DNA of 64,000 bases from a virus (IMGVR_UViG_3300025769_012879:64001-128000); one strand, 5' to 3'. Numbered from the stretch's first letter, positions 27,296-62,018 are shown. The notes: a model not told the origin generated them from the letters alone. Made by a program: numbers and translations.

Positions 27296-27301
27296 AATAA
27301 A

Positions 27302-52560: not shown

Positions 52561-52568
52561 ACTATTTA
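52561..52568 (+). promoter_or_regulatory. putative late promoter for lysis genes
   Basis: ACTATTTA followed by SD GAGG. Confidence 0.7.
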
Positions 52569-52586: not shown

Positions 52587-52871
52587 ATGTCTGAAGAAAA
52601 GATAAACAACGCAGTTGAGTTTGCTGAACTCAAAGGTTCACTCAAAAGAATTGAAGATGTTATTATGACAATAAAAGAAAAAAATGAGGAAATGGCTGGT
52701 GATATTACCAAGATCAAAGAAGCAATCTACAACCCAGATCAAGGCATTTACTCTCGTCTAAAAGAACTTGAAGCATGGAAAGCAAACATGAGTAAAGTTC
52801 TTTGGATTGGCGCAACCGGAGTTATTGGTTCTATTGGTGTTGCAATCTGGGAAGTTTTAAAAAACACATAA
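52587..52871 (+). CDS. coiled coil + C-terminal TM protein (holin/XhlA-like)
   Basis: Single C-terminal TM; directly upstream of the endolysin. Confidence 0.55.
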   Translation: MSEEKINNAVEFAELKGSLKRIEDVIMTIKEKNEEMAGDITKIKEAIYNPDQGIYSRLKELEAWKANMSKVLWIGATGVIGSIGVAIWEVLKNT

Positions 52872-52880
52872 GGATATAAA

Positions 52881-53807
52881 ATGTTACTAAAAAAAGGTTC
52901 ATCCGGTCATCAAGTAGTCGAACTACAAGAGGGACTTGAAGCATTAGGTTACGAATTAGGTGCCTGTGATGGCGCTTTTGGTCCAGCAACAGAAAAAGAA
53001 GTTAAAAAGTTCCAAGCAGAAAATGGACTAAAAGCAGATGGTTTAGCAGGTAAAGGAACAATTGGCAAACTAAATGAGTTGCTAAATGCTAGAAATATTG
53101 AGATCCAAGTTGGCGAAGATGATCAAAATGAAGAGGACTTACCACCAGACGAAAAGTTGAGTTGGGTAAAATGCCCAGCAGATAAGTTCCCAGGCAGAGC
53201 AGGTTACACCCGTGTAACACTCCGTTCAGATGCCGCAGGGGCATACAACGCTCTCTATCAAGAGGTTCAGGACTTAGGCGGTTACTTAACTTCAGCAGGC
53301 GGTAGAAGAGGTTTAGCATCCAAAGCAGGAGCCGCACGATCTAAGAAATCAATGCATTATGTAGGTTTAGCATTTGACATGGCACTGCCAACAGGTATGT
53401 ACAAACCAGAGAAAGACCCTTATGTTATTGAAGATGTTGGCAATCGTCGCTGGAAGGTCTGGATGAGATGTGATAAGGGCGAGGAAATGACCATCGAAGG
53501 AACTTATGTAACTCGTTCAGGCGGTAAGACAAAGTTGAATAAAAAAGAAGTGACAGGAACATTTGTAGATTTCACAGCACTCGCTCTAAAACATGGTTTT
53601 CATTCCATTCGTGCCCGTAGTTCATTTTTTAGAGGCGGTTCCTATGGTGGAGCAGAATGGTGGCATTTCCAGTATGAAAGAGCACTTACAAGAGGCGAAT
53701 CTACTTTTGGTGAAGAACTACTAAAAGTTTACCCACTCGCCAAAGCAAAGCGATTTGTTTACTGGAACCAGTCAAAAGATTGTGTTTTCGGAAAGAACTG
53801 GTTTTAG
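52881..53807 (+). CDS. endolysin: PG-binding domain + M15-type Zn peptidase
   Basis: LKKGSSG..V..LQ..L...DG.FG..T...V..FQ...GL.ADG; SMHYVGLAFD and EWWH. Confidence 0.85.
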   Translation: MLLKKGSSGHQVVELQEGLEALGYELGACDGAFGPATEKEVKKFQAENGLKADGLAGKGTIGKLNELLNARNIEIQVGEDDQNEEDLPPDEKLSWVKCPADKFPGRAGYTRVTLRSDAAGAYNALYQEVQDLGGYLTSAGGRRGLASKAGAARSKKSMHYVGLAFDMALPTGMYKPEKDPYVIEDVGNRRWKVWMRCDKGEEMTIEGTYVTRSGGKTKLNKKEVTGTFVDFTALALKHGFHSIRARSSFFRGGSYGGAEWWHFQYERALTRGESTFGEELLKVYPLAKAKRFVYWNQSKDCVFGKNWF

Positions 53808-54650: not shown

Positions 54651-55204
54651 AACAAGAATTCGTTATTTACACAGGGTCAATGTTTGGTGGCAAGACATCA
54701 CGAATGCTTGCCAGATTAGAAAGAGCAAAGTACAAGAAAAAAGTAATTAAATTGTTCAAACCAAATATGGACACAAGATACTCAACTGAATCGGTTATGT
54801 CTCATAACGGAGTTCGCTGGAGATCTACAAACATCGTAAATGGTCAAGACATCTTAGAGAATCTTGGAAGAGCAGATGTTGTTGCTGTAGATGAAGCATT
54901 TATGATTCCAGGTGTAGCAGACACCCTTGTAGAACTTTATAAGAGGGGCAAAACAATCTATGTTTCATCACTACAAATGTCATCTGCGGGAGATCCTTTT
55001 GAAGAGGTCGTAAAGATGATGCCTTATGCTACAAGGATTGAAGTTTGCCCAGCGGTTTGTTTTTGTGGAGAAGATGCCTATTACACTATTCGACTGAATA
55101 ATGAAGAAAGAGAAGTTATGGTTGGCGGTAAAGATGACTATGAACCGCGATGCAAAGAACACACTCATTATATGAACGAGTTAGAAAAACTTGACAATGA
55201 GTAA
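54647..55204 (+). CDS. tdk: thymidine kinase
   Basis: GSMFGGKT, FKP..DTRY, VAVDEAF, VGG...YEPRC..H. Confidence 0.92.
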   Translation: MKQEFVIYTGSMFGGKTSRMLARLERAKYKKKVIKLFKPNMDTRYSTESVMSHNGVRWRSTNIVNGQDILENLGRADVVAVDEAFMIPGVADTLVELYKRGKTIYVSSLQMSSAGDPFEEVVKMMPYATRIEVCPAVCFCGEDAYYTIRLNNEEREVMVGGKDDYEPRCKEHTHYMNELEKLDNE

Positions 55205-55219
55205 AAAATACCATATAAT
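55191..55219 (+). promoter_or_regulatory. consensus sigma70 promoter for tRNA-Tyr
   Basis: TTGACA-N17-TATAAT. Confidence 0.85.
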
Positions 55220-55232
55220 GGTATTCAAGTTT

Positions 55233-55316
55233 GGAGGAGCGGTAAAGTTGGAGAGTTGCCCTGGTCTGTAAAACCAGTGCCGAAAGGCTGAGTGAGTTCG
55301 AATCTCACCTCCTCCA
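55233..55316 (+). tRNA. tRNA-Tyr(GUA)
   Basis: GGAGGAG/CTCCTCC acceptor, CTGGT-CTGTAAA-ACCAG, long variable arm, GTTCGAATC; no encoded CCA. Confidence 0.88.
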
Positions 55317-55331
55317 CCCTGGAGAAAACAA

Positions 55332-55553
55332 ATGAGATATTATAAAATAATAGATTTTAAAGTAGGAGATTTTATTTACAAGTTTAAAGAAGATCAGTGG
55401 TTAAGGTACGGCAAGGTTGTTCTGGAACAGGACGATATCTTTGGAGTAACCTCTAGCAATTTTAAAGGTGTGATGATGCTCCGCAAAGATCTTCTTTATT
55501 CAGAAGGGTTTATTGCAAGCAACTATGAACTTGACAACAAGCAAGAAGATTGA
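55332..55553 (+). CDS. hypothetical protein
   Basis: SD GGAG. Confidence 0.6.
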   Translation: MRYYKIIDFKVGDFIYKFKEDQWLRYGKVVLEQDDIFGVTSSNFKGVMMLRKDLLYSEGFIASNYELDNKQED

Positions 55554-55559
55554 TACAAT
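55531..55559 (+). promoter_or_regulatory. sigma70 promoter for tRNA-Leu
   Basis: TTGACA-N17-TACAAT. Confidence 0.75.
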
Positions 55560-55571
55560 AGTTTTCAAGAA

Positions 55572-55658
55572 GCGAGCATGGTGGAATTGGTAGACACAAC
55601 GGACTTAAAATCCGTCGCCTCGTTTGGCATGGGGGTTCAAGTCCCCCTGCTCGTACCA
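55572..55658 (+). tRNA. tRNA-Leu(UAA)
   Basis: ACGGA-CTTAAAA-TCCGT, variable arm, CCA end. Confidence 0.92.
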
Positions 55659-55668
55659 AAGGTGTTTT

Positions 55669-55893
55669 ATGAAAAATAAAAAAGCATTGAAAGAATTTAG
55701 AGAAGAATTTTTATTAGATGAAGATTATGAGTATAGCATTGAACAAGATGATGGCGGGAAGACATTAGACATTATTGTCCCAGAAGGACATGCCCAGTTC
55801 CTAAGACAAAAGATTCCACGAAGATGGAGAGGGATTAGGACGATGATAATTTCCCGTAAAAAAAGAAAGCAAATAGATGAAGATGAAATCTAA
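55669..55893 (+). CDS. hypothetical protein
   Basis: ATG 55669 after the tRNA. Confidence 0.6.
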   Translation: MKNKKALKEFREEFLLDEDYEYSIEQDDGGKTLDIIVPEGHAQFLRQKIPRRWRGIRTMIISRKKRKQIDEDEI

Positions 55894-55896
55894 TTT

Positions 55897-56118
55897 ATGA
55901 AGATAGGTGATTTAGTTATAACAAAAACAAACAGACATGTCGGCTGTATAATCGACATAAAAAAACAAAGGTGGGCTGGTGTTTGTGCCAAGATCTTATT
56001 CTTCAAAACAGGTAAGAAAGAATGGAGAAAAATGGGCAACTTAGAACCACTTGACAAAATCCACAAGGAGGGTTATAATGGATTCACTTCACGAGAAAAG
56101 AATGAGAGAGATCAATAA
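55897..56118 (+). CDS. small KOW/SH3-like hypothetical protein
   Basis: MKIGDLV...G.I. Confidence 0.55.
   Translation: MKIGDLVITKTNRHVGCIIDIKKQRWAGVCAKILFFKTGKKEWRKMGNLEPLDKIHKEGYNGFTSREKNERDQ
56051..56079 (+). promoter_or_regulatory. consensus sigma70 promoter
   Basis: TTGACA-N17-TATAAT. Confidence 0.8.
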
Positions 56119-56236
56119 AGAACAAGATAGGCTTCGTCGTAACGAACTTATCTATGTAGCGGTCTCAAGCACATGTATGGGTTATTGCCTTGGTGAATTG
56201 GTGAGAAACTTTTTCCATTACATGGGCTGGATGTAA
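56078..56236 (+). CDS. small hypothetical membrane protein (start uncertain: 56078 or 56102)
   Basis: Hydrophobic C-terminal half. Confidence 0.45.
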   Translation: MDSLHEKRMREINKEQDRLRRNELIYVAVSSTCMGYCLGELVRNFFHYMGWM

Positions 56237-56244
56237 AAATCCAA

Positions 56245-56321
56245 GCGCCCTTAGCTCAGTTGGATAGAGCATCGGTCTTCTAAACCGAGGGTCACAGGTT
56301 CGAATCCTGTAGGGCGTGCCA
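56245..56321 (+). tRNA. tRNA-Arg(UCU)
   Basis: TCGGT-CTTCTAA-ACCGA; CCA. Confidence 0.93.
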
Positions 56322-56323
56322 AA

Positions 56324-56400
56324 GCGGGTGTAGCATAACTGGTAAATGCACTGTTCTTATAAAGCAGAGATAGTGAGTTCAAGCCTCACCACCCGTACCA
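56324..56400 (+). tRNA. tRNA-Ile(UAU)
   Basis: CTGTT-CTTATAA-AGCAG; GCGGGTG/CACCCGT acceptor; CCA. Confidence 0.85.
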
Positions 56401-56404
56401 AAAC

Positions 56405-56477
56405 GCCGAAATAGCTCAGTTGGTAGAGCGCTTCACTTGTAATGAAGATGTCACGGGTTCGATTCCTGTTTTCGGCA
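56405..56477 (+). tRNA. tRNA-Thr(UGU)
   Basis: CTTCA-CTTGTAA-TGAAG; no encoded CCA. Confidence 0.9.
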
Positions 56478-56488
56478 CTGGACGAAAA

Positions 56489-56734
56489 ATGAAAGAAATA
56501 ACAATAAAATTCGATGAAAAGTTTTATAAGCGTCTAAATGACGCACGCAGATTAGAAGCACCAGATATTAGGAACGCTAAGTTCTGTAAAGAATTGGTAG
56601 AAGCGATGGTCGGTGCTATTGAAGACGATCACAAAAATAAAGGAGATAAAAGTGCAAATCGTAAAAAACGAACTAACAAACAAACTAAACAAACTAAACC
56701 TCGCAAACGACGCCGAAGTAACTCTTCGTTATGA
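56489..56734 (+). CDS. hypothetical protein (ribbon-helix-helix-like N-terminus possible)
   Basis: MKEITIKFDEKFYKRL; 3' end overlaps the next gene. Confidence 0.5.
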   Translation: MKEITIKFDEKFYKRLNDARRLEAPDIRNAKFCKELVEAMVGAIEDDHKNKGDKSANRKKRTNKQTKQTKPRKRRRSNSSL

Positions 56735-57137
56735 GAACGGTCGTCAGGTATTTCACTACACAGGCGATTATTTAGACGAGGTTCTTCAAGAGACCAATGT
56801 TATTAGTGAGGTCGCACACCTCGTATCCTACGATGGTATTCGTAAGCATAACTCAGTAATTAACGATCTCCGAAACAACGGAGCACTTGATGATTATGAG
56901 CGAGGTTCATTCACCTTTGAAGACCATGTTTACGAGGCAGTAAAGAACGACTGGTATGATTACATCGAAGAGTCAGTCGAACAATGGGATCACAAGCGAG
57001 GAATGTGTAATGTTTCCGCAGAGGTAAAGGTTCCACTAAATCTACTAGCAGAAGCAGAGGAGTTTGGATTTACTCTTGATAATGCTTGGAAGGTCTTTGT
57101 TCGCACTGATGCCGGTGTGTTGGAGGTAGAGCGATAA
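56652..57137 (+). CDS. hypothetical protein
   Basis: SD AGGAG 56641, GTG 56652. Confidence 0.7.
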   Translation: MQIVKNELTNKLNKLNLANDAEVTLRYENGRQVFHYTGDYLDEVLQETNVISEVAHLVSYDGIRKHNSVINDLRNNGALDDYERGSFTFEDHVYEAVKNDWYDYIEESVEQWDHKRGMCNVSAEVKVPLNLLAEAEEFGFTLDNAWKVFVRTDAGVLEVER

Positions 57138-57250
57138 TGTTTGTAGATGATAAGCAATTTGAGAAGGAAGCAGGTAAGGTCTTTTGGGCATTTGTAGCAG
57201 CATTCGCAGGAGTTGCGGGACTATTCCTTTATCTTGGGAGTTTGGGATGA
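57137..57250 (+). CDS. 37-aa single-TM peptide (not in the ORF track)
   Basis: SD GGAGG, TAATG overlap; VFWAFVAAFAGVAGLFLYLG. Confidence 0.6.
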   Translation: MFVDDKQFEKEAGKVFWAFVAAFAGVAGLFLYLGSLG

Positions 57251-57348
57251 CTCTAAAACAATTATTTTACAGTATTTTGGGAATCACATTTGTTGGTTAT
57301 TGTTTGTTCAGAATGATTCCTGGTGTTTATAATTTATTTATGGGGTAA
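57247..57348 (+). CDS. 33-aa single-TM peptide (not in the ORF track)
   Basis: ATGA overlap, SD GGGAG; MTLKQLFYSILGITFVGYCLFRMIPGVYNLFMG. Confidence 0.55.
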   Translation: MTLKQLFYSILGITFVGYCLFRMIPGVYNLFMG

Positions 57349-57349
57349 A

Positions 57350-58048
57350 ATGTTATTAAAAATGAAAATCCCTCTTTATGAGGACGGCAAAGGTTTCGTA
57401 GAGTTAGTTGATGCTGTGGGTTCAGACCTTTCAGTTGTAAACTCTGCTCGCGTTTCCTTTGGCAAGCACAAAACAGAACTTGATAATAAAGATAAAAAAC
57501 TTATCAAGTATCTTATCAAACACAAGCACACTTCCACCCTGGAACACTGCTTTGTAACCTTCCGTGTAAAGGTTCCGCTGTTTGTTCGCTCTCAACACCA
57601 CAGGCATCGCACTTGGTCTTACAACGAGATTAGTCGTCGTTACACTGACTTTGACATTCAGTTCTATGAACCATCAACTTTTAGAACTCAGCACAAATCA
57701 AACCGTCAAGCAAGCAATGCAAGTGATTTAATTGATCCCGTTTTGCCACAGTGGGAAACATCAGCAGCAGTAGCAATGCGACACCACCATCAAGCAAGTC
57801 TTCAATTGTTTGAAGAACTTATTGAGTCAGGTGTTTGCCGTGAACAAGCAAGGGGTGTTCTACCACAGAACATGTATACAGAATACTATGCTTCAGCAAA
57901 CCTAAATAACATTTTGAAGTTTATTGACCTCCGCACACACGAAGGAGCGCAGTGGGAAATTCAAGAAATGGCAAAGGGAATGCTGGAAATCATTACAAAA
58001 CTTTATCCAGAGACAGTAGGGGCATATCGTGAAATCAGGGGAGCATAA
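57350..58048 (+). CDS. thyX: flavin-dependent thymidylate synthase
   Basis: H.S.LEH; RHRTWSYNEISRRY; EQARGVLP; AQWEI. Confidence 0.93.
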   Translation: MLLKMKIPLYEDGKGFVELVDAVGSDLSVVNSARVSFGKHKTELDNKDKKLIKYLIKHKHTSTLEHCFVTFRVKVPLFVRSQHHRHRTWSYNEISRRYTDFDIQFYEPSTFRTQHKSNRQASNASDLIDPVLPQWETSAAVAMRHHHQASLQLFEELIESGVCREQARGVLPQNMYTEYYASANLNNILKFIDLRTHEGAQWEIQEMAKGMLEIITKLYPETVGAYREIRGA

Positions 58049-58507
58049 ATGGTCATTACTGGAAAAGTTATCTGTCTTGCTGTCATGGTTAACACAGCAC
58101 TCTTTAGTCGTGCTGGTACAAATAGTGCTTGTCGTTATAGCAATATTGTTGTAAAAGCGAGTTCTAAATATAAACTGGACCCCTACTTATTAACAGCACT
58201 TATCAAAGTGGAATCTAATTGGAAACCTCATGTTGTTTCACCTGCCGGTGCTTGCGGATTAACCCAGGTCGTTCATAAATACAGCAAATATAATTGTAAG
58301 CAATTAAAAAATCCAAAGATCTCAATTTGGGAGGGTGCTAAAAAATTAAATTACTGGATTTATAAATACGGCAAGGGCAATGTAAAGATCGGATTATGTG
58401 GATATAACGCAGGTTTTCGATGCAAAGGAAAGTCACCCAACAAAAAAGGGTTGACATACGCAAAAAAAGTTGTTACAATAAGCAACAGGTTAAAAAGGAG
58501 AAAATAA
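58049..58507 (+). CDS. SLT-family lytic transglycosylase
   Basis: ALIKVESN, AGACGLTQ, GYNAG. Confidence 0.85.
   Translation: MVITGKVICLAVMVNTALFSRAGTNSACRYSNIVVKASSKYKLDPYLLTALIKVESNWKPHVVSPAGACGLTQVVHKYSKYNCKQLKNPKISIWEGAKKLNYWIYKYGKGNVKIGLCGYNAGFRCKGKSPNKKGLTYAKKVVTISNRLKRRK
58451..58479 (+). promoter_or_regulatory. sigma70 promoter
   Basis: TTGACA-N17-TACAAT. Confidence 0.75.
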
Positions 58508-58508
58508 T

Positions 58509-58745
58509 ATGCGAAACCTATTTCTAATCACAGCAGCACTATCAATGTTACTATTTGGTTGTGGATGCGATGAAAAGAAGGAAAAGAAGGAAGCAGATGT
58601 AGAGGCAGTTACAGATGCGGGAACTTCAAGTGATGCTGAGGCAACACCAGATGCTGGAACACCAGCAGACGCTACAAGCACACCAGATGCAGCAACACCA
58701 GTTGATGCTGTAGTGCTTCCCGGTGATGTAACACCACAAGGTTAA
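58509..58745 (+). CDS. small lipoprotein with TPDA/DAG repeats
   Basis: Lipobox-like LLFGC; low-complexity tail. Confidence 0.7.
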   Translation: MRNLFLITAALSMLLFGCGCDEKKEKKEADVEAVTDAGTSSDAEATPDAGTPADATSTPDAATPVDAVVLPGDVTPQG

Positions 58746-58752
58746 TCACCTT

Positions 58753-58828
58753 TCCGTGATAGTTCAGCAGGTAGAACAAGTGGCTGTTAACCACTGGGTC
58801 GGGGGTTCGAATCCCTCTCACGGAGCCA
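58753..58828 (+). tRNA. tRNA-Asn(GUU)
   Basis: AGTGG-CTGTTAA-CCACT; CCA. Confidence 0.92.
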
Positions 58829-58844
58829 ACTAGGAGAAACTAAA

Positions 58845-59060
58845 ATGGATAGGACCGCAATAGGAAACTTATTTTTAGAAGCAGCAAAGCGTCGTCTTGA
58901 GGCACAAATCAAAGATGCAGAAGCAAAAGTAAATCTCTATCTAACTCAGGCGGTTGGAGTTGGAGAACATCCAGAAATTACAGAAGAAATTATTAAAGCA
59001 GCAGAACAAGGCGCTCACGCTCAAGATGTTTTAAATTTCATCAATAAGCGCTGGAATTGA
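58845..59060 (+). CDS. conserved phage hypothetical protein (VGVGEHP motif)
   Basis: SD AGGAG. Confidence 0.7.
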   Translation: MDRTAIGNLFLEAAKRRLEAQIKDAEAKVNLYLTQAVGVGEHPEITEEIIKAAEQGAHAQDVLNFINKRWN

Positions 59061-59066
59061 TAGAAT

Positions 59067-59141
59067 GCTCCCATAGTTTAGTGGTTAGAACGCTGGGCTT
59101 TCATCCCGGTAGCGAGGGTTCGATTCCCTCTGGGAGTACCA
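59067..59141 (+). tRNA. tRNA-Glu(UUC)
   Basis: CTGGG-CTTTCAT-CCCGG; CCA. Confidence 0.9.
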
Positions 59142-59460: not shown

Positions 59461-59643
59461 ATGTCAGTTAAGGTTTCACTTGAACAAGTAGTTCAGCAAC
59501 TTACAGAGGCACTTGCCGACGCAGAGAAGACCGATAGTGGTAATAAGGCAGCAGGTACTCGTGTACGCAAGGCAGCACAATCAGCAACAAATGCCTTGAA
59601 GGATTTGCGTAAGCAGGTTCTTGAAGTCCGTAACGCCGACTAG
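59461..59643 (+). CDS. Hc1-like histone H1-like nucleoid protein
   Basis: GNKAAGTRVRKA.....LK.LRK motif. Confidence 0.75.
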   Translation: MSVKVSLEQVVQQLTEALADAEKTDSGNKAAGTRVRKAAQSATNALKDLRKQVLEVRNAD

Positions 59644-59707: not shown

Positions 59708-59721
59708 TCATAAAACAAAGA

Positions 59722-59729
59722 ACTATTTA
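59722..59729 (+). promoter_or_regulatory. putative late promoter for the two-component operon
   Basis: AACTATTTAG, same as upstream of the neck gene (27301). Confidence 0.65.
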
Positions 59730-59757
59730 GTAAAGCAATACAAGAGAATAGTTCTCC

Positions 59758-61011
59758 ATGTTCGTAGATTTTTCATTAAAAAGTAAAATATCATTATTTG
59801 TTTGTATTTTCATTATGTCTTGCTATTTTGTTATGCAAGTCATGTTAGAGGCAGGCGTGCTTCCTTTGACTCACCATGTGATTCACTTTGGAACCGCCTG
59901 CATTTCTTTATTTATCATGCCTTTCGGTGTTATCTTAATGGAGATAATAGGAAGGTATCAAAGCGATAAAGTAAAGAAAAAAGCATTAGAAAGAATTTTA
60001 GATGAATCCTGTCTTGTTTCACGAACAGACCGCCAAGGCAGAATCACAGAAGTAAACGATAAGTTCTGCGAGGTTTCAGGTTATTTAGCACAGGAACTCT
60101 TAGGACAAGACCACAAACTCCTAAACTCAGGTTTACAACCCCGTTCTTATTGGGGAAACATGTATACTGTAACAGTCAAGTACAAATCTATTTGGCATGA
60201 TATTGTGACCAACCGAGCCAAAGATGGTAGTTTATACCATGTAAAGACATGGATTATGGCGAACTTTGATGACCAAGACAAACTCACAGGTTTCCTTTCA
60301 GTTAGACAAGATGTAACCAACCTTGTAGAAACACTACAACAAATTGACAAAAAGAACGACTATCTGGAACATGCCGCAAAGATTTTACGACACGACATGC
60401 ACTCAGGCATCAACACTTATCTACCAAGAGGTATCAAGTCCCTAGAAAGACGCCTAGAAAAGAAACCAGAGGTTGCAAAGCAGTTAAACCTATCCATGCC
60501 CCTAAAACTAATAAAAGACGGTCTGGCGCACACACAGAAGGTTTATAGCGGTGTCTTTGAGTTTACCAACTTGGTTCGCAAAGATGCTTCTCTCAATAGA
60601 AAACCCCACGACACAAAAGAAATTTTGAGAAACTACTTGAGTTTGACTTCTTACTCTGATCAAGTTGTTATTGACGGAAACTTACCAGTTTTGGAAGTAA
60701 ATGAAGCACTTTTCTGCACAGCAATCGATAACATGATTCGCAATGGTCTAAAGTACAACGACTCAAAAACAAAAATGATCATGATCAAAATGGTAGATGA
60801 TGAGACCCTTGCTGTAATAGACAACGGCAGAGGAATGTCTCAAGAAGAATTTGAAGAACTTTCAAAACCTTATCTCAGAAAGCAAGACCAAAAAGAGAAA
60901 GGCACAGGATTAGGACTATCTATTACAACCGCCATTTTAAAAGAGCACGGTTATGAAGTTTCTGCGAAAAAACAAGAAACAGGAACTATGATGAGGATAA
61001 AAATAAAATGA
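59758..61011 (+). CDS. membrane PAS-domain sensor histidine kinase
   Basis: 2 TM; PAS/PAC TD..G.IT.VNDKF..VSGY...ELLG..H..L.SG...W...NRAKDGS.Y; H-box RHDM; N-box NMIRNGLKY; DNGRG; GTGLGL. Confidence 0.92.
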   Translation: MFVDFSLKSKISLFVCIFIMSCYFVMQVMLEAGVLPLTHHVIHFGTACISLFIMPFGVILMEIIGRYQSDKVKKKALERILDESCLVSRTDRQGRITEVNDKFCEVSGYLAQELLGQDHKLLNSGLQPRSYWGNMYTVTVKYKSIWHDIVTNRAKDGSLYHVKTWIMANFDDQDKLTGFLSVRQDVTNLVETLQQIDKKNDYLEHAAKILRHDMHSGINTYLPRGIKSLERRLEKKPEVAKQLNLSMPLKLIKDGLAHTQKVYSGVFEFTNLVRKDASLNRKPHDTKEILRNYLSLTSYSDQVVIDGNLPVLEVNEALFCTAIDNMIRNGLKYNDSKTKMIMIKMVDDETLAVIDNGRGMSQEEFEELSKPYLRKQDQKEKGTGLGLSITTAILKEHGYEVSAKKQETGTMMRIKIK

Positions 61012-61439
61012 TTAACTCTATTCTATTAGTTGATGACGAGAACCTTTTCCATCTTGTCTTTGAGGATGCTTGCTCTCTATTAGACATTACACTAGATTTA
61101 CAGAGCATTTCATCATCAGACGAAGCAGCAAAGATGTTTGAGGATTGGAGAGGACACCCAGAAGATAAACCAGAGTGTGTTTTTGTTGACCTAAACATTA
61201 TTGGTTCATCTTTTGATGGTATTGAACTTATTCGTAAGATTAACTTTGAGTACGGCAACGGAGTTGTTATTGGCATCATCTCATCTTCAACTGACGAATC
61301 AGAAATAACAAAAGCAGTTTCAGCAGGTGCTCAGTTTTGGATTGTAAAGTCAGATGAAATCGAACCACGCCTTGAAGAGTTCCGTAGAGATTATGCGGGG
61401 TACAAAGACAGAAAAGCACCATTCAAGGTCTACAAATGA
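61008..61439 (+). CDS. single-domain response regulator (receiver only)
   Basis: ILLVDD, VFVDLN (phospho-Asp), DGIELI, ISSS, WIVK. Confidence 0.9.
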   Translation: MINSILLVDDENLFHLVFEDACSLLDITLDLQSISSSDEAAKMFEDWRGHPEDKPECVFVDLNIIGSSFDGIELIRKINFEYGNGVVIGIISSSTDESEITKAVSAGAQFWIVKSDEIEPRLEEFRRDYAGYKDRKAPFKVYK

Positions 61440-61993
61440 AACTCTCACAAGAAATGAAGTCGGCATTGTTAGACCTTGCCGAGAAAAGAAATATTTATCT
61501 TGAAGGTAATATTATCAAGGTAATAGACCCTGACAGCGATGAAGAGTTCGCTGGATACCTAACAAAAGCAAAAGAGCAAGACACCGACAACCGAAAGAAA
61601 AGGTTGGAGATAACCAAGCAAGTCCAGCGACAATACAAAGAACTCCTTGAGGAAAAAGAAAAAAATGACACCCTCATGGATGAACTCAAAGAAGCACTTG
61701 GTGCTGCTGAGGAAGCAAAGAAAACAGCACAGAATGACTTAGACGTGCTGCAAAAGCGCACGCAGTTTGAACTCATAGGCAAGATAGTCAATGTTGCTCT
61801 GTGGGTCATTATGGGTGTGGGAGTGACAACTACTGCCCTCTACATGTTCGCTATGATTACGAAGTTTGATACAACTCTAATTGGCAACGCTTGGTCAAAC
61901 TTATTCGGCATCCTTCTCACTAACTCCTTCAGTATTATAGGAACTATCATGGGTGTGAAGTATGCGAGCAACGACTCTAAAGAAAAGACTTGA
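61436..61993 (+). CDS. coiled-coil protein with two C-terminal TM helices (third gene of the kinase operon)
   Basis: ATGA-coupled to the receiver gene. Confidence 0.8.
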   Translation: MKLSQEMKSALLDLAEKRNIYLEGNIIKVIDPDSDEEFAGYLTKAKEQDTDNRKKRLEITKQVQRQYKELLEEKEKNDTLMDELKEALGAAEEAKKTAQNDLDVLQKRTQFELIGKIVNVALWVIMGVGVTTTALYMFAMITKFDTTLIGNAWSNLFGILLTNSFSIIGTIMGVKYASNDSKEKT

Positions 61994-62018
61994 CATAGGA
62001 TCCAAACTAACATATAAT
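61990..62018 (+). promoter_or_regulatory. consensus sigma70 promoter
   Basis: TTGACA-N17-TATAAT overlapping the stop of the kinase operon. Confidence 0.85.

Follow-up and report, generated by a model that had tools for sequence, protein, structure and literature searches.

A conserved viral gene trio encoding a sensor histidine kinase, a stand-alone receiver and a coiled-coil membrane protein, with a possible link to phage lysis

We analysed a 64,000-nucleotide stretch of viral DNA (the window, at its full length), which comprises bases 64001–128000 of the linear 141-kb IMG/VR record IMGVR_UViG_3300025769_012879 (estimated completeness 78%). Three overlapping open reading frames (ORFs) in the window encode a sensor histidine kinase, a stand-alone receiver and a small membrane protein, hereafter P3, and are flanked by a gene for a histone-like Hc1 protein upstream and a dUTPase gene downstream. 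ATGA overlaps at 61008–61011 and 61436–61439, read directly from the sequence, link the first gene to the second and the second to the third, so that the translational coupling proposed in the initial annotation, which was made from the DNA alone, is borne out. The kinase–receiver pair is complete and lacks a DNA-binding output, also as proposed; the 141-kb record holds one receiver and one HATPase_c domain only, and a search of it for a second receiver or kinase found none. The coordinates of the trio and of the other features are given in Table 1.

The kinase begins with two hydrophobic transmembrane (TM) helices joined by a loop of approximately 10 residues, which, by the positive-inside rule, would place the rest of the protein in the cytoplasm. 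Profile matches above cut-off assigned PAS_9 to residues 84–187 (E 1.5e-8) and the GHKL-type catalytic domain HATPase_c (PF02518) to residues 319–416 (E 2.4e-14). The H-box (LRHDMHSG, residues 210–217), N-box (324–334), G1 box (DNGRGM, 355–360) and G2 box (GTGLGLS, 382–388) were all located in the sequence, intact as first described. Pfam HisKA did not match the kinase, and the PDB kinases HK853 and CpxA aligned with it only from residue 246 or 319 on. The spacing between RHDMHSG and the catalytic domain is the expected one. RHDMHSG was present in all 84 family kinases of the fetched loci (see below), and the N, G1 and G2 patterns were all present in 73 of the 84.

The PAS domains of MmoS, Aer and NifL (3ewk, 8dik and 2gj3) bind flavin adenine dinucleotide. 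These proteins are the closest solved relatives of the kinase PAS domain (E 1.1e-25, 1.2e-16 and 1e-7, respectively), with 40–50% identity to MmoS PAS-A over 112 residues. Judged by sequence, the PAS domain is therefore of the flavin-binding type, in line with the resemblance to Aer and NifL that had been suggested. The sensor half takes several forms among relatives, including GAF-PAS, double PAS, tandem kinases and a minimal TM hairpin plus core; about a quarter of the family kinases consist of the hairpin and the catalytic core alone. Tandem second kinases were seen at seven loci (L007, L012, L014, L015, L023, L025 and L027).

The receiver matched Response_reg (PF00072, E 2.4e-9) alone, with no second domain. 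Residues D9, D10, E11, D61, S92–S94 and K114 were invariant among 50 homologues, across which the mean column identity was 79%, and a tail of approximately 25 residues at the C-terminus was also conserved. The protein is thus what it had been described as: a receiver with the acidic pocket, the phospho-acceptor Asp and the Lys, and with no DNA-binding domain.

P3 consists of a long helix followed by two C-terminal TM helices, and both of its ends are predicted to be cytoplasmic by the positive-inside rule; the coiled-coil, two-TM architecture given in the initial annotation was recovered. An AlphaFold2 model built from 50 sequences (mean predicted local distance difference test score 83) comprised a small N-terminal domain (N-domain), a single helix of residues 36–142 running straight into TM1, a short loop and TM2. 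The cytoplasmic part amounts to 115 residues. TM2 shows almost no variation and has a high content of Gly, Ser, Thr and Asn, and the coiled coil varies in length by 20–40 residues among relatives. No family in Pfam or PHROGs matched P3 above cut-off, and a fold search with the model found no relatives in the PDB and, in BFVD, none outside the P3 family itself. Membership of SLATT_5 was rejected (E 0.063; 13.1 bits against a cut-off of 29.5), and a weak match to DUF2207_C, below cut-off, was set aside.

Table 1 Features of the trio and its surroundings in the window.
Feature	Positions	Strand	Details
Trio	59758–61993	+	Three overlapping ORFs: kinase, receiver, P3
Sensor histidine kinase	59758–61011	+	417 amino acids; TM helices 59788–59847 and 59878–59949; PAS approximately 60007–60321; H-box 60385–60408; N-box 60727–60759; G1 60820–60837; G2 60901–60921
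Stand-alone receiver	61008–61439	+	143 amino acids; Asp61 phospho-acceptor codon 61188–61190; C-terminal extension
P3	61436–61993	+	185 amino acids; N-domain residues 1–45 (LEGN motif), long coiled-coil helix, TM1 61772–61858, short outer loop, TM2 61892–61966, short charged C-tail
Late-type promoter-like motif AACTATTTAG	59721–59730	+	Exact match; end 28 nt before kinase ATG
9-bp inverted repeat AGAACTATT / AATAGTTCT	59718–59756	+	Pairs late motif with bases before kinase ATG; ends 1 nt before ATG
Perfect TTGACA-17-TATAAT	61990–62018	+	Overlaps P3 TGA stop 61991–61993; before dUTPase gene
Candidate lysis pair	52587–53807	+	ACTATTTA at 52561; 94-amino-acid coiled-coil protein with one C-terminal TM helix, then 308-amino-acid PG_binding_1 protein
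SLT lytic transglycosylase	58049–58507	+	Hydrophobic N-terminus; SLT E 4e-17
Lipoprotein-like gene	58509–58745	+	78 amino acids; LFGC lipobox-like, read from translation; Thr/Pro/Asp/Ala-rich tail

P3 is encoded by 461 IMG/VR stretches. Its relatives number more than 4000 at 90% clustering and fall into 210 clusters at 50% identity; all are close relatives, with no wider superfamily, and the Atlas clusters were viral wherever a taxon was recorded. For neighbourhood analysis, 82 loci were fetched from the 461 viral matches, and the order kinase–receiver–P3 was kept in all of the approximately 75 viral loci that reach far enough upstream. Identities among the fetched loci were 70–98% for the receiver, 47–97% for P3 and approximately 60% for the kinase core, with a variable sensor half; the receiver is thus more conserved than P3 or the sensor half of the kinase. 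Most flanking gene families were limited to one to five loci each. Because the order of the trio is kept while its flanks change, the trio is held together by selection and not by frozen synteny. Extra genes of 160–580 codons stand between the receiver and P3 at some loci (L012, L013, L014, L015, L034, L039 and L041) and between the kinase and the receiver at another (L008); among them is a 163-amino-acid multi-TM protein (cluster 20). A comparison with GenBank phages (50,697 records) yielded nothing that matched the DNA, the receiver or P3, and that set thus offers no known cultured carrier. We found no published description of the trio in the literature; the receiver discussed in a survey of jumbo phages (PMC7824862) is a different, kinase-independent one.

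Rare natural rearrangements of the P3 domains bear on what P3 does. Variant P0159 has the architecture GAF–coiled coil–hairpin, and variants P0184 and P0272 have PAS–PAS–coiled coil–hairpin; all three lie on phage-like contigs without the kinase or the receiver. A sensor fused directly to the coiled coil and hairpin, with neither kinase nor receiver, places the hairpin as the output under an upstream sensor, so that these fusions substantiate the earlier designation of P3 as an effector module. Conversely, in four clusters (P0234, P0254, P0257 and P0263) the P3 N-domain and coiled coil head HisKA–HATPase_c, replacing the sensor. A search for longer fused forms returned GAF and PAS fusions only, and no fusion of the receiver to P3. 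Two further variants, P0163, in which the N-terminal part of P3 is joined to an FecCD permease, and P0157, in which the partner is a fragment of RNA polymerase, were single records and are probable assembly chimeras.

A cellular counterpart was found on contig CANIVF010000058.1 of a Bacteroidetes metagenome-assembled genome (MAG) (L087:1666–5047), which encodes a triple-PAS kinase, a 143-amino-acid receiver and a second kinase that begins with the P3 N-domain. The receiver is 69% identical to that of the phage, the kinase headed by the N-domain stands directly behind it, and the core of the triple-PAS kinase is homologous to the phage kinase core. This cellular trio sits between genes carrying the Por_Secre_tail signal of the type IX secretion system (T9SS). 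The N-domain therefore travels with the receiver and heads two different outputs, which argues that it is the input of P3. These N-domain swaps, although still indirect, are the strongest argument available that the receiver would signal to the P3 N-domain. Searching one genome from each of 185,579 species confirmed 3 of 37 candidate stretches, one of them with a trio-like layout, and the receiver was present in 1 of 301 genomes of the order to which the Bacteroidetes contig belongs; the cellular form of the trio is sporadic. The initial annotation had named as refuting a triplet that is not conserved or that resides mainly in host chromosomes as a recent transfer. It is instead conserved in viral contigs and nearly absent from cellular genomes.

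The surroundings of the trio contain genes with predicted functions in lysis, with an arrangement that differs between clades. The 94- and 308-amino-acid proteins of Table 1 are likely to be the holin–endolysin pair of the phage; the catalytic part of the second has no Pfam match. Closer to the trio, the SLT lytic transglycosylase and the lipoprotein-like gene could be a second lysis or spanin-like pair. The N-terminus of the SLT protein is weakly hydrophobic, a candidate signal-anchor-release or signal peptide, and its gene is separated from the lipoprotein-like gene by 1 nt. In other clades, recurrent direct neighbours of the trio are Peptidase_M15_3, PG_binding_1 with GH19, PG_binding_1 with Amidase_2, a GH24 endolysin and a phrog_3000 endolysin-related protein, as well as holin-like and other small membrane proteins. 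At least eight arrangements of such hydrolase-adjoining layouts were seen, and the two fused sensor–hairpin forms lie 1–2 kb from GH19 or glucosaminidase genes. With chosen seed families, a hydrolase was found in the flanks of 37 of the 82 loci, mostly within 2.3 kb. The chance of a single locus falling within such flanks is approximately 5–8% for a genome of 150–300 kb; the loci are related, so that this is not a clean test. A link to lysis is on this evidence a reasonable leading hypothesis, clade-dependent and carried mostly by the other clades.

An exact AACTATTTAG stands upstream of the kinase gene, where the initial annotation had placed its putative late motif; within the window it recurs exactly just once, at 27301, before the head–tail adaptor gene. 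Its core, ACTATTTA, occurs in the genome in 17 copies on the plus strand and one on the minus strand. Twelve of the 17 plus-strand copies lie 16–32 nt before an ORF starting with ATG, compared with 20% for random positions (lenient rule; p ~9e-6). Among the genes so preceded are the adaptor gene, a 985-amino-acid structural gene, the holin-like gene, the kinase gene, neck and tail genes, and genes that flank the one for the major head protein. The same late-type motif is found before the trio and before the holin-like/PG_binding_1 pair. To read ACTATTTA as a late promoter is fair, and late expression of the trio is plausible. The inverted repeat that takes in the motif would form a hairpin with a fold energy of -9.9 kcal/mol (z -2.05), and it is kept, with a different loop, in L002 and L004, which are close relatives. 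Its function may be to silence read-through transcripts, such that only late transcripts would be translated, as the example of T4 late genes suggests. At the other end of the trio, the perfect sigma70-type site that had been reported on the last stop codon was confirmed. Within 10 kb, three perfect TTGACA-17-TATAAT sites (55191–55219, 56051–56079 and 61990–62018) and three matching at 11 of 12 positions (55531, 58451 and 63044) were found, all on the plus strand; base composition would lead one to expect approximately 0.02 perfect sites, by estimate.

Nearly all genes of the window lie on the plus strand. They include a T4-type large terminase (TerL), a portal and a major head protein, replication and nucleotide-metabolism genes, and seven tRNA genes. 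The tRNA genes (Tyr, Leu, Arg, Ile, Thr, Asn and Glu) lie at 55232–59141, just upstream of the trio, among small genes and those for ThyX, thymidine kinase and an HNH endonuclease. Directly upstream of the kinase gene, positions 59461–59643 encode a 60-amino-acid protein homologous to Hc1, the histone H1-like protein of chlamydiae (E 4e-15), preceded by a DUF3310 gene. The trio occupies a variable accessory region with nucleotide-metabolism genes. The best identities of TerL, 41%, were to Flavobacterium phage immuto and Microcystis phage Mel-JY01. The nearest terminases and the lone cellular homologue, in a Bacteroidetes MAG, would suggest a Bacteroidetes host, but the perfect TTGACA/TATAAT sites conflict with this, since the primary sigma factors of Bacteroidetes are not known to use promoters of this type.

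We propose the following mechanism for the trio. The kinase would be anchored in the inner membrane by its two-helix hairpin, with almost no outer loop, and its flavin-type PAS domain would read the cytoplasm, most likely the redox or energy state. We infer that the kinase autophosphorylates on the His of RHDMHSG and that the phosphate passes to Asp61 of the receiver. The phosphorylated receiver would then bind the small N-domain of P3, and the change would pass along the single long helix of P3 into its two-TM hairpin. The hairpin may in turn alter a membrane event, most likely by triggering or blocking lysis as a regulated holin, pinholin or antiholin-like protein. A chain from kinase through receiver to P3, in which P3 would act as the output at the membrane, is probable given the conserved order and the domain swaps. 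Taken as a whole, the proposed mechanism, a phage-owned phosphorelay that would act on a protein and not on DNA, is in our judgement about as likely as not. Lysis timing as the controlled event is a serious candidate that we would not yet rely on. Only tentatively do we suggest the most specific form of the proposal, in which the receiver would switch, by direct binding, a new class of signal-gated hairpin acting as a regulated holin or antiholin, and large aquatic phages would compute the time of lysis from the host redox or energy state, or from other PAS or GAF cues, instead of following a fixed holin clock.

Several observations weigh against this proposal. The PAS domain is missing from approximately one third of the family kinases, so that redox sensing cannot be the general signal; it is plausible for this phage. 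The late motif was found upstream of the kinase gene, within 120 nt, in 7 of 80 relatives only. P3 matched no holin, antiholin or spanin family in Pfam, PHROGs or the fold searches. Typical holins are shorter than P3, and their sequences usually vary far more than its TM2 does. In the window, the trio is 1.25 kb from the SLT gene and 6 kb from the candidate holin–endolysin pair, between the histone-like gene and the dUTPase gene. A recognised hydrolase is present in no more than the 37 flanks noted above, at loci that are not phylogenetically independent. The distance from the trio to PG_binding_1 genes, the only family searched for there, is 26–58 kb in five large records that belong to the nearer clade. 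The holin- or antiholin-like reading of P3 suggested in the initial annotation is weak for the window: the two TM helices, the charged tail and the endolysin neighbours in other clades agree with it, but the lack of a holin family, the large size and, in the window, the position outside a lysis cassette do not.

In an alternative reading, the relay would drive P3 towards an event other than lysis. Candidates are superinfection exclusion, an effect on membrane potential or on transport during infection, and evasion of a membrane-monitoring host defence. The position of the trio outside the lysis cassette in the window and in the nearer clade, in a variable accessory region with nucleotide-metabolism genes, would fit such a role, as would a P3 far more conserved than holins usually are. 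Nevertheless, in many other clades the trio and its fused forms stand directly beside endolysins of five families and holin-like genes, and the putative late-class motif is common to the trio and the holin-like gene, so that we regard a function apart from lysis as rather unlikely.

In another explanation, P3 would not be an output but would serve the kinase as a scaffold or accessory in the membrane, in the way that LiaF serves LiaS, and the receiver would target a host protein such as a motor, a host kinase or an enzyme. The kinase has a two-TM hairpin without an outer domain, and approximately a quarter of the family is just hairpin and core, like intramembrane-sensing kinases that need a membrane partner; the invariant TM2 of P3 could contact the kinase hairpin, and the P3 N-domain does occur fused to kinase cores. 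The sensor–coiled coil–hairpin fusions on contigs without kinase or receiver indicate, however, that the hairpin works without the kinase and at the output end, and we consider a scaffold role unlikely. That the trio came only recently from a host chromosome, as a passenger without a role specific to the phage, as the homologous kinase–receiver pair between T9SS-sorted proteins in one Bacteroidetes MAG contig might suggest, is highly improbable given the 461 viral matches and more than 4000 P3 relatives, the gene order and catalytic residues kept across 47–97% protein identity despite changing flanks, and the rarity of the cellular form (3 of 37 stretches confirmed, one trio-like, and the receiver in 1 of 301 genomes of that order).

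The proposed relay can be compared with known systems that share some of its parts. LytSR with LrgAB/CidAB in staphylococci and Bacillus likewise links a two-component system to membrane proteins resembling holins and antiholins, and to membrane energy state. Its regulator LytR binds DNA through a LytTR domain and acts on transcription, and the LytS sensor is of the multi-TM 5TM-Lyt type. The trio, in contrast, is made up of phage genes with no LytTR or 5TM-Lyt, its receiver is a single domain, its kinase has two TM helices and a PAS domain, and its control is presumed to act protein on protein; no sequence relation to LrgAB/CidAB was found in Pfam or PHROGs. Lysis inhibition in T4, with holin T and antiholins RI and RIII, is similar in that a signal sets the time of phage lysis through dedicated small membrane and cytoplasmic regulators, and the pinholin gp63 of phage N4 has a regulator, gp62, with two TM helices and both ends cytoplasmic (PMC12642591). 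These proteins have no sequence similarity to the trio and operate without a kinase or receiver, and their signal is superinfection and not an intracellular state sensed by PAS or GAF.

Receiver-only proteins that have all catalytic residues and act by protein binding are represented by CheY with FliM, DivK with DivL/PleC, and CpdR, and the cellular form, whose second kinase starts with the P3 N-domain, is reminiscent of the control of kinases by DivK. The putative target here differs in being a phage-only N-domain joined by a long helix to a TM hairpin. What sets the phage kinase apart from MmoS, Aer and NifL is its output, a phage kinase core that has the unusual H-box RHDMHSG and is unmatched by Pfam HisKA; flavin binding by its PAS domain is a prediction from sequence. 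SLATT effectors of nucleotide-signalling conflict systems are alike in the idea of a two-TM effector under an upstream signalling module, but P3, whose match was sub-threshold, is not a member.

Two-component systems in complete form are seen as belonging to cells. A relay owned by a phage, with a non-transcriptional output embedded in the membrane, would give viruses a new means of reading the host. The modular build of P3, with an input domain, a signalling helix and a two-TM output, together with its natural one-component versions, offers direct experimental handles, and P3 may be a building block for the synthetic control of membrane permeabilisation. If the trio does set the time of lysis, the holin clock, which is central to phage fitness, would gain a sensory layer in a group of phages that aquatic metagenomes contain very commonly.

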